NCBI GenBank assembly: GCA_044370175.1
Contig: JBILVZ010000002.1
Coordinates: forward strand, 8,759 to 72,758
Length of the DNA: 64,000 nt
Reading direction: 5' to 3'
DNA from: Methylococcaceae bacterium
GTDB taxonomy: Bacteria; Patescibacteriota; Microgenomatia; UBA1400; PJMF01
The notes below the pieces were generated by a model. It had not been told where the DNA came from. It worked only from the letters and a program-made list of their open reading frames with translations, and searched no databases. Within the stretch, counting starts at the first letter, position 1; every line of letters begins with the position of its first letter. The position numbers and the translations under genes are program-made. This document shows, piece by piece, positions 32,341 through 42,773 of this stretch.

Positions 32341-32410
32341 CTTGATCAAAGTGATATCGATATTTTTCCATATCAATGGTGTAGTCGCTTCCCACCTCAA
32401 CTCCTTCTGC
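32341..32410. repeat. Copy A of a ~70-bp imperfect direct repeat (partner at 39705..39773)
   Basis: CTTGATCAAAGTGATATC is identical in both copies; overall about 55/70 identical. On the minus strand copy A reads ...EGVEVGSDYTIDMEKYRYHFDQ, joined by a frameshift to an upstream 43-codon ORF that starts with ATG at 32523-32525. Confidence 0.5.
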
Positions 32411-32592: not shown

Positions 32593-33123
32593 TTGGGCTT
32601 ACCCAGGAGAAAGGTTCCCATGATTGACCTACTTCTTTCTCTGCTCTGGCAGCTGAGGTATAAAACAAAGCCATCTGATCTGGTTGTCTCAGAACTGCAC
32701 AACGAAGCCACGTTTTATAAAAAGTTTCTTCAAGACCTAAAGACTGCCAAAACTGAGGTGATTATTGAAAGTCCATACATTACTACCCAGCGTATGAAGC
32801 AGCTCAAGCCTGCTTTTGTGCTGTTGGTCAAGAGAAAAATCAAAGTTTACCTGCTTACCAGAGACCCAGATAGCCACGATGAATGGATGCGAACACAAGC
32901 AGAACAAGGTATCAAACAATGCCAACTGCTTGGTATACAAGTGGTCTTAAATAGTCAGTTAAGCCACCGCAAGCTTGCTATAATTGACCGCCAGATTCTC
33001 TGGGAAGGCAGTCTCAACATTCTTTCTCAGTGCCAAAGCCAGGAGATCATGCGCAGAATTGACAGCCAGAGCCAGGCAACTGCCTGTTTTTCATTCATTG
33101 GACTGAGTAAATATGTCTATTAG
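32593..33123 (+). CDS. Single-HKD phospholipase D-family protein (Nuc-like nuclease/phosphodiesterase)
   Basis: HxK(x4)D motif in SHRKLAIID, followed by GS.N (WEGSLNI). 176 aa, consistent with single-HKD Nuc-type enzymes that dimerise. Confidence 0.7.
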   Translation: MGLPRRKVPMIDLLLSLLWQLRYKTKPSDLVVSELHNEATFYKKFLQDLKTAKTEVIIESPYITTQRMKQLKPAFVLLVKRKIKVYLLTRDPDSHDEWMRTQAEQGIKQCQLLGIQVVLNSQLSHRKLAIIDRQILWEGSLNILSQCQSQEIMRRIDSQSQATACFSFIGLSKYVY

Positions 33124-33156
33124 TTAAAACTTGTAATCAAAAGGTATAATACCGCT

Positions 33157-33372
33157 ATGCAACAAGACACTCCTTACCAAATCAATGAAAAAGATATAGA
33201 CCAAGTACTGGCATTCTTAAAAGATACCGATCCTGAAAATGCAACGCCAGAGAAAGCTATTGCACTGCTTGAAGACTTACAAGCTACCATTCACAACATG
33301 AATCACGAGAACCCAGAACAGCTCCAAGCCTTATATGATAGCTTGGCAAAAAATAAGAAAAAAGCTGAGTAA
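33157..33372 (+). CDS. Hypothetical small acidic protein (71 aa)
   Basis: Intact ORF 33 nt after the PLD-like gene; no motif recognised. Confidence 0.3.
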   Translation: MQQDTPYQINEKDIDQVLAFLKDTDPENATPEKAIALLEDLQATIHNMNHENPEQLQALYDSLAKNKKKAE

Positions 33373-33376
33373 ACCT

Positions 33377-33601
33377 TTAAAAGGTCAATACGTCTGAAGA
33401 CTTGATGCCGAGTGCTCCCAAAATCTTTTTGAGGGTTAAAATTGAAGAGATTGCTTCTCCCCGTTCCACTTTTGAGTAGTAGTTACTGTTAATCCCTGCC
33501 TTTTTAGCGAGTTGTGCTTGGGTGAGGTTATTATCAAGACGAGCCTGCTTGAGCTTGGCAATAATCTGTTGATTTGTTTTCTTCTCTTGAGCAGTAAGCA
33601 T
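33377..33601 (-). CDS. XRE-family helix-turn-helix transcriptional regulator
   Basis: LTQAQLAKKAGINSNYYSKVERGEA is the canonical HTH_3/XRE motif; 74 aa. Confidence 0.75.
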   Translation of the reverse strand: MLTAQEKKTNQQIIAKLKQARLDNNLTQAQLAKKAGINSNYYSKVERGEAISSILTLKKILGALGIKSSDVLTF

Positions 33602-33657
33602 ATAGTGTAGTATATCAGGTCATAAGTATCTATTCATTCATTTGAAGAAAGGAAAGT

Positions 33658-34119
33658 ATGACCAATCCAGTTTCAAAGCCTGAAAATCTTTATGCAGTAT
33701 TATTTATAACGAAGCGGATAAATAAAGATTCTGTTGTTACTTTGAATACACAAGAAACTATGTGCAAAAATGCTGCTATAAAAAGTGGGTATCAAGTTAT
33801 TAAGATATTTAGAGAAAAAACCAATTTTTCAATTAAAATCGCTGATAGACCTATCGTCACTGAACTACTTGAATACTGTAAAACACACAGGGGCAAGGTC
33901 AATGCAGTTTTTGTAAATACTCTGGACACTATTTCTGCTGATATTTACGAATATATATCAGTAAGAAAACAATTAAGTGCACATGAAGTATCAATTTTTT
34001 CAGCAACAGAGCCTATTACTAATTATTCTGAAAAAAAGCATGTGGAGACGATACTTTTTGCATTTGCAGAACTGGATAAGGCCGTGCGAACTGGAAAACT
34101 TCCTATCTCGACTGAGTAA
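33658..34119 (+). CDS. Serine-recombinase (resolvase) catalytic-domain-like protein, apparently inactive and lacking the DNA-binding HTH
   Basis: Collinear with Hin/resolvase. FSIKIADRPIVTELLEYC aligns with ISGKIANRPGLKRAL. VFVNTLDTISAD aligns with LVVWKLDRLGRS. IFSATEPI aligns with FHSLTDSIDT. The catalytic YxRVSTxxQ is replaced by LFITKRINK (R8 and S10 not conserved), and the LDRLgR arginines are absent. 153 aa, no C-terminal HTH. Confidence 0.45.
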   Translation: MTNPVSKPENLYAVLFITKRINKDSVVTLNTQETMCKNAAIKSGYQVIKIFREKTNFSIKIADRPIVTELLEYCKTHRGKVNAVFVNTLDTISADIYEYISVRKQLSAHEVSIFSATEPITNYSEKKHVETILFAFAELDKAVRTGKLPISTE

Positions 34120-34333
34120 CTTCTTGCAAAGTTTTTCCATCGAAAATGGATCGTTCGTACTCATCCAGCCAAGTACTAATGAGATAATCTATGCAGGTAA
34201 TTTGGTGCTTTATTTCTTCATCAGTCATTCCCTCAGCACACTTGCCAAGGATCTTACGTGTTTCTTGAATCTCATTTTCATCTTCAATAAATGGATTGTC
34301 AGTATGGTTAACTACCTTTGAATGTCGAAACAT
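34103..34333 (-). CDS. Hypothetical small protein (76 aa)
   Basis: Intact acidic ORF convergent with the resolvase-like gene (16-nt overlap); no motif. Confidence 0.3.
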   Translation of the reverse strand: MFRHSKVVNHTDNPFIEDENEIQETRKILGKCAEGMTDEEIKHQITCIDYLISTWLDEYERSIFDGKTLQEVTQSR

Positions 34334-34423
34334 ACCACCTTTCTTAAATATGATATTTAAAACATGGTTTTAATTTATACCCAGCATCAAATAAATTAAG
34401 CACTTAATATAACAAGTAAATAT

Positions 34424-34966
34424 TCAGTCTTGAAGTAGCTTTGAAATATCCTCCATTAAAAATATTAACTCTGTTGCTGTAATGAAATCAGGAGTAACTG
34501 GCTTTCCTTTTAGGCTTGTGTCAATTGTTTTATCTCTCCATGTTATTGGCTGATCTTTTTTAATAGTTTCTTCTGTAAAATTAAAAGTATTTCCATGAGC
34601 AGCACCATTTCTTAAATGTTTTGCGAATTTATATATTGGCATTGAATTAATCTTATTTTGATATTTAGAAGCTTGTAAAAAATCGAATAACAATATTGCC
34701 ATCATCCTACTTACATACGTCATAAATTTTTTGTTACTAGAAGTGTATGAGCCATCGCTACTTACTCTTAAATTAACTTCTTTGTTATACTCATTTATGC
34801 TTTTAGCAATAGCTGGGTGAATCCTTAAGAATGCAGTTTGAAAATTTGGATTTCCCACAAAGCCAATACTTAGAATGAAGAAGTCAAACATTTTTTTAAT
34901 TGGATCGAAAAGTGGATGAACTTGTATTTTATTGTAATCAACACTCATATTTATATACCCCATCAA
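34424..34966 (-). CDS. HEPN-like / abortive-infection (Abi)-like protein with R-x4-H motif
   Basis: KHLRNGAAHGN contains the R-x4-6-H HEPN catalytic signature in an otherwise helical 180-aa protein. It lies in a very AT-rich stretch next to the recombinase-like and XRE genes. Confidence 0.4.
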   Translation of the reverse strand: MMGYINMSVDYNKIQVHPLFDPIKKMFDFFILSIGFVGNPNFQTAFLRIHPAIAKSINEYNKEVNLRVSSDGSYTSSNKKFMTYVSRMMAILLFDFLQASKYQNKINSMPIYKFAKHLRNGAAHGNTFNFTEETIKKDQPITWRDKTIDTSLKGKPVTPDFITATELIFLMEDISKLLQD

Positions 34967-35067
34967 TATTTACTTTTCTATAATAATCGGCAGCTTTACT
35001 TACTAGTCTTGTATTATTCAGCTTGAATAGGTTTTATTATAAAAAAATTTGTATGTCTAGACATAGT

Positions 35068-35094
35068 AAAACAGCCACCCTTGTGAGGTGGCTG
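35068..35094 (-). terminator. Rho-independent terminator of the 1138-aa surface protein gene
   Basis: Minus-strand CAGCCACC-TCACAAG-GGTGGCTG followed by TTTT (top-strand AAAA at 35067-35070), ~100 nt after the stop at 35194. Confidence 0.6.
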
Positions 35095-35193
35095 TGGTCT
35101 ATAGCTATGTAACTAGTTTAGTACCGCTTAATATCTTAGAAATCAAGATATCAGCAATAATAAAGTTAATTACATAGCTTTCAAACGAAGAAA

Positions 35194-38100
35194 TTAACGC
35201 TGAACAAGTGGGAGGAACAACATATTTTGTGGTGGAGGCGGCGGATCAACTTGGCATTGTGTGGTCGATCCAGGAGAGCCATTGAGTTCACTCTGCCCAG
35301 CCTCATTGAAAGCGCTGACCGCAAAATGGTATTCAGTCTGACATACCAAATTGGCGACAGTGAAACTAGTAACGCCAACCCCAACACGAGCAATCTCTTG
35401 ATATCCTGCACCCATATGTTGCCAAACGATAAAACCAGATTCGTTATCACTGGAATCGTCCCAAAGCACTTGAATGGTTGTATCCGTGTGTCCAGCGGTC
35501 CGAACATTTCTCGTCCACTCAGGAATTGTAGGTTGTTGATGACAACTACGAACCAACCCTGTTACTGAACCGCTCTTGCCATTGAGGAAATCTTTTTCAT
35601 CCTCGGTGTTTAACAACTTTGCAACCACACGGTATGTGTGCTGGCTGCCTTCTGCCCGACCTTCATCGGTGAAACTGTATGACGATTTTCCAACGATACT
35701 AGCCACTTCAGCAATCACTTGCTCATCTCGTAGCACATAGAACTTTTCCTCAAAATTTGAGTAGTCATTCCATGTAATCGTCAGTGATGAACAAGTGGGC
35801 GAATCGATAGCAGTAATCACAGGAATCGCAATTCGCACACCCACGAAAGTCAGGCCAGTCTTCACTTCACCCACTTCGTTACGAGCAGACACTTGCAGAA
35901 TGTATAGCCCAGGTTCAACTCCAGTAACTAACCAGGAAGTTTGACTTTTCCAGCCAGAGCTATATGTTTTTTCACCCAGAAGATCTGCCTTATAATCATT
36001 GGCTCGCTCTGCTGCACGCCAGGCAATATAAATCTGAGCGTCCTCATCAAAAACATTCATTCCTGTCAGCTCAGGCTCTGGAAGAGCGGGCGCAAACGCT
36101 GTACAAGCAGATGTTTGCCCCATTACCCAGCCGACCTGACCAGATTCACCGAATGCATTGGTTGAACTAACCTTGTAGAACTGCTGTGTACCACATTGGA
36201 CTTGATCGGTGAAACTGCGATTGGGCGTGTTGTGTGAGAGGAAAACAAATTCATTCCCGTTCCACTTGTACACCCTGAAACCCACGGTATTTGGTGTGGC
36301 ATGATCCCAAGCCAATGAAATGGAGTCTTCGGTCACGCCGCTGACACGTAAGTTATAGGGCGAAAGTGGAGCACAAGTCGCATTGCCAAAGATCTCGATG
36401 GATGATGTGCGGTTGTTGAGTGAGCCAATGTTTGGAATGTCGCCACTCAAACATTCAGATCGCTCACCTTGAGCTTCATTGTGTTCGTAGAGAATGCCGC
36501 TTTTGCCCACAGGGAACCTTACAGATTGCGCTGTGTCGTTGAAGTAATCTTTTGAACCCAAATTTTCCATGTTGTATACACCCGGGTCAGCACCTGCTGA
36601 CCAAGTATAACTTTGAAAATTTGAGTCATTGTGAAAAACCACACTAGTACGCAGCGTGTTAGGACAATCACCTTGATTGAAAACTTCGATGTCGGTGACT
36701 TGAGCATACAAATCAGATGGCCAACCGCTGGGCAGCGGGTCGCGTGGGGCGTTGTAGCATTCTACGGTACCTCTTTTGCTGCCCTCTCGATAAATTGACA
36801 CAGACATCCCAGAAGGCACTTCAGTCAGCCGGGTCATGGTGTCATTCCAGCCTGGCCCAAAGGCAGGCATTGAATGATATCCAGTACCGAACTGCCAGCA
36901 CCCTGTTGGGCTGCACATCACAATCAAACCTGAACCACCAGTTCCGCAGTCATTGCGGTTGAATGTCTCGATTGATTGAATGGAGTTGTGCCAACCGTGG
37001 TCCTGTAAATTGGGTACCGATTGATCCCAGCATCGCTGCTCACCACCCTTATTATCTCCGCGCCATGTTCTTGCACTCCATCCACTAGGAAGCTGCAGTG
37101 CATAAGAATTGGCATTTGGTGAATTGGAAAAGCCAAGTCCTCCAGACCATTGCACACTTCCACCATAGTTTGCCTGTGCGTATAACTTGGCATACCCCGT
37201 TGAAGTGTCGTTTGATGGATTGCAGTTGAATGACTTGGTCTTAACTGGGTTAAGGTTATGTTGGCTCCAAACAAAGTTGTTGCCTACTTTATCCCAGATT
37301 TCCAAACCAAATTCAACTGAACCATCTGGCACATTCCAAGCACACATGTTCCAGCTATAGCTGTATGGGGCAGTGCTCACTGTGGCGAGATTACGCCAAG
37401 TTCCATTCCACTTTGCTGAGTAGCGGAGTTCTTTAATACCACTATCAGTGTCTTGAACACCAGATACTGCAAGATTTGCAACACCTTGATTGATGGCGAC
37501 AGAAAAGCCTGATGCCAATGGAGGCGCGCAATCTGCGCTAGACGCAAAAGCATTGGAACTTTGGACACCACCACATTGGAATGCACCAATGAAAACATTT
37601 GCCACATGGGTTTGGTTTGCCTTGACAGTGATAGCATCTTGATTGAGGCTATCCTGTGTTAAGTCATTAAAAAACCCAGTAACACTTGTGCCATCAATGT
37701 TATATGCAGTAGCGCGCACTTTTACTTTTAACTGTGCGGGGATATTTTGAATTTCAAAATATCCGTTGATGTCTGTCTTACCACGAGCAATGACATCCTC
37801 CCGCATCAATACCTCAATACTTGCTGCGCCTGACGGTTGTCCATCTCTGTAGACTCTCCCGCCGATACTTCCAAAGCCTTCTGTATTCCATGAAGTTTCT
37901 CCCGGAACCAGAATCTCCCAGGCTGGGATAATTGTCCAGTGATGTCTGTCAGCAATACAGAAAGGCGGAATTTGATCAAAACCACAAGGCACGAAATGGT
38001 AGCCAAGATCAGCTGTAAGCTTTGCATTATCCAGATCAACTTCACCTGGTAATAATGCAATTTCTGTATAATAGAGCTTATTTGCTTCCAGCTTTTTAGC

Positions 38101-38610
38101 ATTTGCTGTCCCAAAAGTCACTTCAAATTCATTGTCAACTTCTGGGAGTACTGCAGTGTCAATGTACCATTCGGGCAAGTTAGATTGAGCCCACTGTGCG
38201 ACTGGAATTCCAGCGACGGTTGCTGTATTTACCCATACGCCCGGAGGAAACTGAGCACCTGTAGTATTGAACGAAAAGCCGTGCTCATAGGTTACTGCAC
38301 TTGAAAAAAGTGAACCATATGCAGCTTGAATTGCGGCAATCCTGTCAGCCGTCCAAATCATTTCCTGACGGATAACTCGATTGCCCTCATAGTTGACATA
38401 GGTGATAACTTTTCCAGCAGCGGGACGAAAATCACCAACGACATCAGTATATGCTTCGCTTGAATCCTCCTTCGTTTGAATTTGAACAGTTGAAATACTC
38501 GTTGGACTAACCTGCGCGACAGCAACAAAACTTTGGCTGGTGAGCATCAAAATGATGAGCACCATGAGCAATTTTTGCTTTGCTTTCACAAAGCTCGGTG
38601 AATCGTTCAC
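35194..38610 (-). CDS. Very large secreted surface protein with fibronectin type III-like repeats, a carboxypeptidase-regulatory-like domain and Trp/Gly-rich beta modules
   Basis: Signal peptide (MLIILMLTSQSFVAVAQV). GGRVYRDGQPSGAASIEVLMREDVIARGKTDINGYFEIQNIPA matches the CarboxypepD_reg fold. Several ~90-aa segments have the FN3 W...Y...A.N..G pattern. Repeated YAQANYGGS / WRGDNKGGEQRCW modules. Strong AGGAGGA ribosome-binding site upstream. Confidence 0.7.
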   Translation of the reverse strand: MNDSPSFVKAKQKLLMVLIILMLTSQSFVAVAQVSPTSISTVQIQTKEDSSEAYTDVVGDFRPAAGKVITYVNYEGNRVIRQEMIWTADRIAAIQAAYGSLFSSAVTYEHGFSFNTTGAQFPPGVWVNTATVAGIPVAQWAQSNLPEWYIDTAVLPEVDNEFEVTFGTANAKKLEANKLYYTEIALLPGEVDLDNAKLTADLGYHFVPCGFDQIPPFCIADRHHWTIIPAWEILVPGETSWNTEGFGSIGGRVYRDGQPSGAASIEVLMREDVIARGKTDINGYFEIQNIPAQLKVKVRATAYNIDGTSVTGFFNDLTQDSLNQDAITVKANQTHVANVFIGAFQCGGVQSSNAFASSADCAPPLASGFSVAINQGVANLAVSGVQDTDSGIKELRYSAKWNGTWRNLATVSTAPYSYSWNMCAWNVPDGSVEFGLEIWDKVGNNFVWSQHNLNPVKTKSFNCNPSNDTSTGYAKLYAQANYGGSVQWSGGLGFSNSPNANSYALQLPSGWSARTWRGDNKGGEQRCWDQSVPNLQDHGWHNSIQSIETFNRNDCGTGGSGLIVMCSPTGCWQFGTGYHSMPAFGPGWNDTMTRLTEVPSGMSVSIYREGSKRGTVECYNAPRDPLPSGWPSDLYAQVTDIEVFNQGDCPNTLRTSVVFHNDSNFQSYTWSAGADPGVYNMENLGSKDYFNDTAQSVRFPVGKSGILYEHNEAQGERSECLSGDIPNIGSLNNRTSSIEIFGNATCAPLSPYNLRVSGVTEDSISLAWDHATPNTVGFRVYKWNGNEFVFLSHNTPNRSFTDQVQCGTQQFYKVSSTNAFGESGQVGWVMGQTSACTAFAPALPEPELTGMNVFDEDAQIYIAWRAAERANDYKADLLGEKTYSSGWKSQTSWLVTGVEPGLYILQVSARNEVGEVKTGLTFVGVRIAIPVITAIDSPTCSSLTITWNDYSNFEEKFYVLRDEQVIAEVASIVGKSSYSFTDEGRAEGSQHTYRVVAKLLNTEDEKDFLNGKSGSVTGLVRSCHQQPTIPEWTRNVRTAGHTDTTIQVLWDDSSDNESGFIVWQHMGAGYQEIARVGVGVTSFTVANLVCQTEYHFAVSAFNEAGQSELNGSPGSTTQCQVDPPPPPQNMLFLPLVQR

Positions 38611-38705: not shown

Positions 38706-39392
38706 TTAATAACAATTAATGGGTTCAGAAAAACATGTGTCGCTAGCGGATTTTGTTACTTCTAAGCACACTTTTTCTGATGAATCGTTAGGCGTGTAGA
38801 TAACTTTCCATTTAAAGTCTTTTACAACCTCTTTTGCGTTATGCATTTTAAGAACTTTTGTTGAACATGATGATAGTGGTAGTTGTTGTCTTTCATGGGG
38901 ATAGAGTTTATAAGCGTTACGCAATAATGCACTTTGCTTATCATTGCTGTGGGCATACAACAAACTTACTGCTATGGCAAGAAATACCACTATAATGGTA
39001 GGGCGCATCTTAATTTCTGTTAAAGCAAGATTACTTTTCTTGGCAAATTTTCTAGACATTAGCCATGTAATTGCTAATAGTATTAAAAAAATTAACAGAG
39101 GGTTAATAATTGCCCCTATCATAGGTTTCATTACACCTTCTAAAGGTGCCTGAATGCACCTAAAAAAGTAAGGAAAACTAGGATCATAAATATAACTTTG
39201 ATATAACTTAAAACTTGGTAAGGGAAGATAGCCACAAACAATATCAATTTCATTATATGTATATGCTACATGAGTTCTTGTAAGTCCAGCATAAAACACA
39301 AAAATTGATCCTATTACTAACAGGAAGAATGAAAATAGCTTTTTTCCATAAGTACTCACGCTATTTTTCTCTAATTTTGTATTATGAATCAT
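38706..39392 (-). CDS. Hypothetical membrane protein (228 aa)
   Basis: 3-4 hydrophobic helices, AT-rich codon usage, no motif. Confidence 0.4.
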   Translation of the reverse strand: MIHNTKLEKNSVSTYGKKLFSFFLLVIGSIFVFYAGLTRTHVAYTYNEIDIVCGYLPLPSFKLYQSYIYDPSFPYFFRCIQAPLEGVMKPMIGAIINPLLIFLILLAITWLMSRKFAKKSNLALTEIKMRPTIIVVFLAIAVSLLYAHSNDKQSALLRNAYKLYPHERQQLPLSSCSTKVLKMHNAKEVVKDFKWKVIYTPNDSSEKVCLEVTKSASDTCFSEPINCY

Positions 39393-39704: not shown

Positions 39705-39773
39705 CTTGATCAAAGTGATATCTGTACTTCTCAACATCAATAGTGAAATCACTTCAGACTTCAATTCCTTTGC
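39705..39773. repeat. Copy B of the ~70-bp imperfect direct repeat (partner at 32341..32410)
   Basis: Same orientation as copy A. On the minus strand it reads KGIEV(TGA)SDFTIDVEKYRYHFDQ, directly after the stop of the histidine phosphatase gene. No start codon, so it is a fragment. Confidence 0.5.
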
Positions 39774-41745: not shown

Positions 41746-42773
41746 ATGAAAAAAATCCTCAGTGTCCGATTTGTGAAAGCAGTAGCTGGAAAAAAGGACG
41801 TCGTCGAGGAAAAATAAAATATCAATGCAGAACGTGTAGAAAATGGTTCCAGATCAACAGGTCTCGTGAGAGCGTACCTGCAAAAGCATTGCTGGTTCAG
41901 CACTTAAGTGGGATGTCATTTCGAACGTTGTCAGATATGCATGGCTGTGGCGTAGCCACAGCCTACAGAAGAGTTCAAAAGGGGTTGCAAGAATTACCAA
42001 CCTGCATTGATGTCACCAGATGGTACTGTCAAAAATTCCAGGGTATCCTGCTGGTGGATGGCAAGTATGTACGTGTCAAACGATATGATCGCAAAATACC
42101 TGTGTTGTATGGCGTTGACTACAGTACACATGACATACCGCACTACAGACTCTCGAGAGCTGAGAATTATTTAACCTGCAAGAAATTCTTTGAGTCCTTG
42201 AAGTTAACAAACTATGTTGTGCATGCAGTCGTGTGTGATGACAATCTCAATATTTATCAGGCAGCACAACACACATTTCCTGAGGTCGTTATCCAGCTCT
42301 GTCACCTGCATTTCTTGCGGAATATGAGAGCACTGCTTGATCTTGAAAACAGCTCAACACACCAGCTATTTTTTCAGCTACTGACCAAACTATTAATTGA
42401 AAAAAGATCAAAACAAGACTTTGAACAGCGAGCTTCCCGATTGGTTTCTCACTTTGCAACTGATCAGGTCTGTACCGGAATATTGCTTGAACTCGCCAAG
42501 AAACAATCACTCCTACAAGGCTATTTGCACTACAAAGGTATTCCGACAACCACAAACCTCATCGAGTCATTTAACTCACATCTTGAAGCAAGAATACGTC
42601 CTCTTAAAGGTTTTGAATCTTTCAAACATGCAGAACTTTGGCTCAATGCATACTTCCTACGGAGGAGAACGAGGAAATTCACTGATTGTTCAGGAAAATT
42701 TAAAAAATTAAACGGAAAAACTTCTCTCGAAATTGTCAAAAAACCACGGATTGATCTACCAACCTTTTTTTGA
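41746..42773 (+). CDS. IS1-family-like DDE transposase with N-terminal C2C2 zinc ribbon; frameshifted at an A7 run
   Basis: The C-terminal TNLIESFNSHLEARIRPLKGFESFKHAELWLNAYFLRRR parallels IS1 InsB [36 protein letters not shown]. Candidate catalytic D/D residues sit in LLVDGKYV and VVCDDNLNIYQ. The in-frame upstream segment NPQCPICESSSWKKGRRRGKIKYQCRTCRKWF is an InsA-like zinc finger with no start codon of its own. ATG 41746 is followed by A7 and reaches that frame only by a -1 shift. The longest ATG ORF in the DDE frame is 41889..42773. Confidence 0.6.

Follow-up and report, generated by a model that had tools for sequence, protein, structure and literature searches.

A locus of a probable Patescibacteria genome, read as a reduced defence hot spot, joins a conserved PLD-XRE gene cassette to putatively stranded mobile-element and defence genes

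The 64,000-nt stretch of DNA analysed here (hereafter the window; contig JBILVZ010000002.1) contains, at positions 32593-34966, six small open reading frames (ORFs A-F; Table 1). Four of these, encoding a single-HKD PLD-like nuclease (A), an XRE-type regulator (C), a serine-recombinase-like protein (D) and a candidate HEPN protein (F), had been interpreted in an earlier note as a possible decayed mobile or defence module with a nuclease-HEPN pair as cargo. All six ORFs were confirmed, and the same six are present in independent gene calls for 17 metagenomic contigs with an identical locus. With moderate confidence, we interpret the locus as a reduced accessory or defence hot spot in the genome of a probable member of the Patescibacteria (candidate phyla radiation, CPR), composed of two independent and unrelated small gene sets: a conserved trio of PLD, B and XRE genes, and a stranded mobile-element and defence cargo consisting of D, E and F. 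The four recognisable genes are not one system and should not be annotated as one.

The four family assignments of the earlier note, namely PLDc_2 with an intact HKD motif, XRE helix-turn-helix (HTH), resolvase catalytic domain and an Rx4H protein, were all reproduced, with profile E-values for A, C and D far beyond chance. Likewise, a PADLOC-type defence profile scan identified no known defence-system architecture that matches the locus, as the note had stated. In contrast, the proposed pairing of the nuclease with the HEPN protein was not supported. Co-occurrence counts rest on the best 80 of 246 relatives for the PLD loci and on 19 distinct loci outside the window lineage for F; no F homologue was found in any of the 80 PLD loci, and a PLD gene is present in only one of the 19 F loci. 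The partners are instead B and XRE for PLD, and restriction-modification (R-M) and Gabija operons for F elsewhere. Joint occurrence in other genomes, a check that the note had proposed, was seen for PLD, B and XRE, whereas F, XRE and PLD were not found together beyond the window lineage and one related locus (L010).

ORF A is a member of the PLDc_2 family (E 5.9e-11; 42.8 bits against a Pfam cut-off of 27) and carries one complete HKD motif per chain, H116-R-K118-L-A-I-I-D123-R-Q-I-L-W-E-G130-S-L-N133 (HxK(x)4D(x)6GSxN), which is identical in the L010 homologue (47% protein identity). In its size of about 160 aa and its one HKD motif with all catalytic residues, A resembles the Nuc/Zucchini-type single-HKD nucleases (PF13091), and such a single motif implies a homodimeric active site. 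A also matches MkoC, MkoB and DrmC-like PLD profiles in PADLOC and, weakly, NucT; the best match among PDB sequences, mitochondrial cardiolipin hydrolase (4ggj), has an E-value of only 0.15. The metagenome scan with A yielded the 246 relatives, of which the 80 fetched are 45-59% identical. Unlike Nuc/Zucchini-type nucleases in general, these proteins come with a constant partner B of 60-95 aa and a convergent XRE gene, both specific to the PLD-B-XRE cassette.

A B-like ORF lies directly 3' of the PLD gene in 47 of the 71 loci with at least 400 nt of downstream sequence, and 50 of the 80 PLD loci contain an XRE homologue, mostly right after B and on the opposite strand. The window B is related to an 82-aa ORF of L010 (B'). 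Searches of Pfam and the PDB with the B family yielded nothing beyond chance, for example serum albumin and AAA_lid. C matches HTH_3 (E 1.4e-14; 54.3 bits against a cut-off of 23) and the PADLOC profile 'Control_protein' (E 1.9e-11); a role as R-M control protein was rejected, as no methyltransferase is present. Because B and XRE genes co-occur with PLD, and neither an F homologue nor a short D-like protein was found among the 80 PLD loci, we regard PLD-B-XRE as a real unit, which in the window appears to be an intact, self-contained representative of a widely conserved cassette. Domain identities, the lost active site of D, gene associations, synteny and disruption by insertion sequences are observed here, whereas the biochemical activities and regulatory links of these genes, as of the others below, are inferred. 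By analogy with Nuc-type single-HKD enzymes, the PLD protein is probably a homodimeric, metal-independent phosphodiesterase acting on nucleic acid; B would be its small obligate partner, presumably a modulator or inhibitor, and the convergent XRE protein would be the transcriptional controller of the cassette.

For F, genomic context provides the strongest argument that it is a HEPN-type effector, beside its motif, weak profile matches and hints from the predicted fold. Homologues are encoded in Patescibacteria genomes, including Saccharibacteria, Peregrinibacteria, Woesebacteria, Uhrbacteria and Nomurabacteria. In three of the 19 loci (L010, L014 and L016), F belongs to a GajA-GajB-F arrangement, with unambiguous Gabija neighbours (GajA, E 4e-197; GajB, E 1e-122), and in L010 and L016 it overlaps the GajB stop codon by 11 nt; the homologues closest to the window protein (72-80% identity) are those directly after GajB. 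Six loci contain F inside or abutting R-M operons, either between HsdS and HsdR with 4-nt overlaps (L027), between Mod and Res (L031, L032, L033 and L034) or behind a type ISP enzyme (L037). In one locus, F follows Fic in an island that also encodes an ADP-ribosyltransferase (ART) toxin, and in nine it is solitary among housekeeping genes. In L011-L013, a divergent F homologue (P0013) was found 4 nt behind a Fic gene; this island also contains a second Fic gene, an ART toxin gene, an HpaII-type R-M system with Vsr and a tyrosine integrase.

All of 13 close and 13 diverse F homologues retain the motif H116-x-R118-N-G-A-A-H123-x-N125 unchanged. In the AlphaFold2 (AF2) model of F (predicted local distance difference test score, pLDDT, 85.5; predicted template modelling score, pTM, 0.77), which is helical, the motif ends helix 109-122. 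A survey of the HEPN superfamily describes an Rx4-6H motif at a helix end, with a polar residue (usually Asn) after the Arg (PMC3710099). The best profile match of F, to Csm6_HEPN, remains below threshold (E 0.0029; 17.9 bits against a cut-off of 23.4), and the only Pfam families that recur among F members are two HEPN families, both below their cut-offs. A Foldseek search of the model against the PDB returned no significant match, and the F profile gave only chance matches to PDB sequences. For the HEPN assignment of the earlier note, the invariant motif and the genomic context speak in favour, profile and structure searches stayed short of significance, and F is probably a HEPN-type effector and a predicted RNase. 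A HEPN-MNT toxin-antitoxin pair was also considered and rejected, as no nucleotidyltransferase was found and the neighbours E and B belong to no known family.

The same survey describes R-M-linked HEPN RNases by analogy with PrrC (PMC3710099). F resembles these proteins (PrrC/RloC and the pEK499_p136-like proteins) in being small and predicted to be all-helical, in its Rx4H motif with Asn after Arg at a predicted helix end, and in that genes of its family are embedded between R-M subunits, with one branch located beside Fic and ART genes. It differs from PrrC and RloC in that it lacks an ABC ATPase domain, and from R-M-linked HEPN proteins in that no Pfam HEPN model matches it above cut-off, one F subclade is coupled to GajB of Gabija and the window F is solitary. 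Gabija itself, composed of GajA (OLD-family ATPase/TOPRIM) and GajB (UvrD-like helicase), is related to F through the closest homologues directly after GajB; canonical Gabija, however, comprises two genes, and the window contains neither. Our literature search on a third Gabija gene returned nothing specific, and the GajB-F linkage was not found there. By analogy with PrrC, F relatives wired into type I or type III R-M or Gabija operons would act as fail-safe effectors, and the window F would be a HEPN-type RNase whose Gabija partner was lost.

D matches the Pfam Resolvase family (E 1.3e-12; 48.4 bits against a cut-off of 23.3), with the match starting only at profile position 15. A word-index search recovered only D itself; an exhaustive HMMER search, which was used instead, yielded 791 relatives, mostly large serine recombinases of 500-550 aa with 30-43% identity. 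The AF2 model of D (pLDDT 83) covers the whole catalytic domain and helix E, and Foldseek matched it to the catalytic domains of the TP901-1 (E 3.7e-6, probability 1.00), Bxb1 and PhiC31 integrases (E about 4e-6), so that structure prediction supports the recombinase catalytic fold. Within this shared fold, alignments place R20-I-N22 at the position of the R-V-S motif that is present in 40 of the 43 closest relatives, and the nucleophilic Ser is thereby replaced by Asn. Furthermore, both arginines of the DRxxR motif are lost, D90-T-I-S-A94 (in LDTISA, for LDRxSR) standing against DRxSR in the family and D67-R68-L-G-R71 in gamma-delta resolvase (R68 to Thr and R71 to Ala in its numbering), and the chain stops beyond helix E, at its residue 153, without the recombinase and zinc-ribbon domains that constitute the DNA-binding part. 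Lacking the Ser and the arginines despite its recombinase fold, D cannot be an active recombinase, as had been suspected in the earlier note.

The only other Ser-less proteins among the 43 closest relatives of D are P0015 and P0017, both of 148 aa, which stop at the truncation point of D (R-S/T-G-K). The three proteins are 37-60% identical and have I41, E98, G146 and K147 in common, whereas 741 control triples share at most one such residue, and each of the three genes adjoins a small XRE gene. P0015 (L038) is located between a CBASS and type ISP R-M island and a type IV secretion system (T4SS) cluster, while P0017 (L041) adjoins Shedu; PLD and F are absent from both loci. The shared truncation and rare residues point, in a tiny sample, to a small retained family rather than three separate wrecks. 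A rival explanation takes D for nothing more than a pseudogene: the integrase of a dead integrative element would have left a 5' stump without a function of its own. The loss of the catalytic Ser, of both arginines and of the C-terminal two-thirds relative to the 500-550-aa recombinases fits this explanation, as does the truncation of D by an insertion sequence (IS) in a sister strain; we hold it to be possible but rather doubtful, as the ORF is intact over the whole catalytic domain and helix E, has a ratio of non-synonymous to synonymous substitution rates (dN/dS) of 0.19 (from 10 substitutions only), and shares its end point, its derived residues and its XRE neighbour with P0015 and P0017. 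D, which with P0015 and P0017 makes up the three short derivatives of large serine recombinases known to lack the Ser, is, judged from sequence, probably not a product of simple decay. Our literature search on Ser-less recombinases returned nothing specific.

E is homologous to a 106-aa ORF of another metagenomic locus (L078 1135-1455; phmmer E 4.5e-14), whose sequence has a 4-nt overlap with the start of a gene for a 525-aa large serine recombinase with the motif RVSSEEQ (L078 1452-3029). Another relative of E, with a pairwise E-value of 8e-7, is the 57-aa ORF with which the L014 island ends. The E homologue at the start of an active large serine recombinase, together with the recombinase relatives of D, suggests that D and E both derive from a large-serine-recombinase module, of which D would no longer be able to cleave DNA. 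In L078 the E homologue and the recombinase are co-directional, whereas the 3' ends of D and E in the window are convergent with a 17-nt overlap (34103-34119), which implies a local inversion or rearrangement. Several related large serine recombinases (L086 7256-7495; P0021 and P0023; L078 1452-3029) have C-termini of the form G-x-R-T-R, which resembles a tRNA T-arm translated from the opposite strand and suggests integrase genes running into a tRNA attachment site.

A syntenic relative of the locus, L010, lies on a 1.37-Mb contig. Its gene order is fn3 giant, T4SS, GajA, GajB, F, B', XRE and PLD (minus strand), and that of the window, read on the minus strand, is fn3 giant, F, E, D (minus), XRE, B (minus) and PLD (minus). 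In addition to the PLD proteins, F (72% identity), XRE (36%) and the C-terminus of the fn3 protein (43%) correspond between the two loci. In the window, only 227 nt separate the fn3 gene from F, and tblastn identified no T4SS or Gabija genes in the whole 64 kb. The sister strain (L024) is about 95% identical in F, E and D; one IS3-like element splits its F after about codon 155, and another replaces the first 73 codons of its D. The absence of T4SS and Gabija genes relative to L010 and the IS elements in F and D of the sister strain together suggest that this gene set is dispensable and being lost, and D, E and F would represent the stranded cargo of a variable region between XRE and T4SS. The decayed mobile or defence module proposed in the earlier note thus appears largely right, although D has probably not simply decayed.

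Several observations weigh against this interpretation. Instead of having been lost from the window, the T4SS and Gabija genes could have been gained by L010, as no outgroup polarises the event. The T4SS adjoins the PLD cassette in only about 30% of the loci with enough flank, so that an anchor of a T4SS hot spot describes part of the family. In comparison with the sister strain, dN/dS is 0.38 for F, 0.13 for E and, as given above, 0.19 for D, from only 8-11 substitutions each, and the low values of D and E, together with the derived characters common to D and the two other Ser-less proteins, argue for function rather than decay. Finally, the host taxon is deduced from relatives only, and the sister-strain contig, the one named record, was binned as a Limisphaerales metagenome-assembled genome, which is probably a binning error.

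The T4SS also enters into an explanation of the cassette that we consider unlikely, namely that PLD-B-XRE is a T4SS accessory, whose Nuc/NucT-like nuclease would act on DNA as it is transferred or taken up, and that the window kept it when the T4SS was lost or moved elsewhere. Single-HKD nucleases linked to T4SS and transformation include Nuc of the conjugative plasmid pKM101 and NucT of H. pylori, and the weak NucT match of A is in line with this. T4SS genes (M23, VirB4, TraC-like, PrgI and pilin) occur downstream of the cassette in 9 of the 31 loci whose flank extends to 4.5 kb or more. The cassette directly abuts the T4SS with nothing between in L100, L102 and L124, and in L115 it is also contiguous with T4SS genes. 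However, the other 22 of these 31 loci have no nearby T4SS gene, and the window retains the cassette without a T4SS in 64 kb. Inspection by eye, without a predictor, revealed no evident signal peptide in the PLD proteins of the window, L010 and L078, and no relatives of PLD were found in plasmid and phage records or in IMG/VR viral contigs. We retain the interpretation of the cassette as an independent unit, which in relatives would often mark the distal end of a T4SS cluster and be separated from it by inserted defence genes that vary from locus to locus and follow XRE. Besides T4SS genes, the genes found after XRE in relatives include Shedu, HsdM, a ResIII helicase, an SMC-like ATPase and a giant fn3 protein. 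Such a region resembles the defence islands and hot spots that flank conjugation or T4SS modules of integrative elements, in which a variable defence set (Gabija, Shedu, CBASS or R-M) is located at a fixed position by conserved genes, and differs from them in that the conserved anchor is the PLD-B-XRE cassette and that the window lacks a T4SS; our literature search on T4SS defence islands of Saccharibacteria found nothing specific. A family of 263-377-aa proteins without Pfam or PADLOC match recurs both beside the Ser-less D-like genes and beside XRE of PLD cassettes (L038 5894-6685, minus strand; L041 2100-2891, minus strand; L106 2369-3502, plus strand; L068, L119 and L127).

That two parts of the locus are unrecognised functional families rather than debris is speculative, and we give it little weight: F-type proteins would form a new HEPN RNase clade of exchangeable fail-safe effectors, and the Ser-less short domain would be a domesticated decoy subunit. 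F-type proteins may plug into Gabija, as a third, GajB-coupled gene, and into type I and type III R-M systems across the Patescibacteria, and may also work alone; D, P0015 and P0017 may bind large serine recombinases and block or redirect element integration. It is very improbable that the locus is one composite defence or toxin system, with PLD and HEPN RNase effectors under XRE control and the dead resolvase domain as sensor or scaffold: in its favour, the stretch is AT-rich and the genes in it stand close together, each of the families turns up repeatedly in defence islands (with PADLOC matches of PLD and a control-protein-like XRE), and F, XRE and PLD lie within 2 kb of each other in both the window and L010, but the co-occurrence ends with these lineages, the D-like proteins of L038 and L041 have CBASS, type ISP R-M or Shedu beside them but neither PLD nor F, and the genes alternate in strand with convergent overlaps.

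The compact, AT-rich character that the earlier note had ascribed to the stretch between repeats was confirmed, with a GC content of 0.363 (33-34 kb) and 0.318 (34-35 kb) against about 0.41 in the window. The repeats are direct and imperfect, 66 nt long and 79% identical, with the first 18 nt identical. They bracket 7.3 kb, including the A-F module, the fn3 giant gene and a gene for a 228-aa membrane protein, and are fragments of coding sequence with the minus-strand reading G[VI]EV.SD[YF]TID[MV]EKYRYHFDQ; the right copy follows the stop codon of a His_Phos_1 gene in the same frame and holds an in-frame stop. Their origin could lie in the borders of an old element or in the end of a gene that was displaced. 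The source peptide was not found in any other locus, and a search for an empty-site allele via identical His_Phos_1 proteins found none, the island being present in all 17 contigs. The locus does not qualify as an integrative (conjugative) element, given its inactive integrase domain, the absence of T4SS genes from the window and a 66-nt gene fragment as the sole flanking repeat. Furthermore, F has no relatives in plasmid records or IMG/VR viral contigs and D has none in IMG/VR viral contigs, which, together with the same result for PLD, indicates that the module does not come from a known plasmid or phage. Scans for tRNAs and Rfam families found nothing in the window, and hence no tRNA attachment site and no RNA element, and a promoter scan showed no enrichment over shuffled sequence.

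Among the neighbouring genes, the secreted fn3-repeat protein has 86% aa identity and a synonymous divergence (dS) of 0.59 relative to the sister strain, while the adjacent gene for the membrane protein is free of synonymous changes, a contrast suggestive of mosaic recombination or of hypervariability in a surface protein. An IS256-type transposase ORF (Transposase_mut) was identified 2 kb past the right repeat.

Table 1. Location of the genes and other features of the locus, its surroundings and the sister strain (window positions unless marked L024)
Feature	Location	Strand	Description
A	32620-33123	+	167 aa; predicted single-HKD PLD-family (Nuc-like) phosphodiesterase/nuclease; alternative TTG start at 32593
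B	33157-33372	+	71 aa, helical; core motif LKxxDPENATxExAI; no family
C	33377-33601	-	74 aa; XRE/Cro-type HTH regulator, convergent with PLD-B
D	33658-34119	+	153 aa; catalytic-domain-only large serine recombinase derivative
E	34103-34333	-	76 aa, acidic; no family
F	34424-34963	-	179 aa; probable HEPN-superfamily protein; carries LRNGAAHGN
Junction	34967-35193	.	227 nt; site of T4SS cluster and GajA-GajB in L010 (synteny, tblastn)
Terminator hairpin of fn3 giant gene	35095-35071	-	Terminator scan; inside the 227-nt junction
fn3-repeat secreted protein	35194-38610	-	1138 aa
Membrane protein	38706-39392	-	228 aa
IS256-type ORF	41889-42773	+	294 aa; Transposase_mut
Left repeat	32341-32406		66 nt
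Right repeat	39705-39770		66 nt
IS3-like element in F of L024	L024 7083-8196		orfA 91 aa and orfB 292 aa
IS3-like element in D of L024	L024 8902-10103		ORFs of 111 aa and 267 aa

Taken as a whole, the locus is an informative but fairly ordinary remnant and not a new defence system. If the interpretations given here hold, it offers three testable leads in CPR bacteria, a group in which defence and mobile elements have received little study. The PLD-B-XRE cassette would be a widespread unit with several hundred relatives, no assigned role and a frequent position beside a T4SS cluster. The HEPN-like family of F would provide a possible RNA-targeting back-up linked to both Gabija and R-M systems and thereby extend the PrrC paradigm, and D with its two Ser-less relatives would constitute a small family of recombinase domains that are catalytically dead and may act as regulators of recombination.

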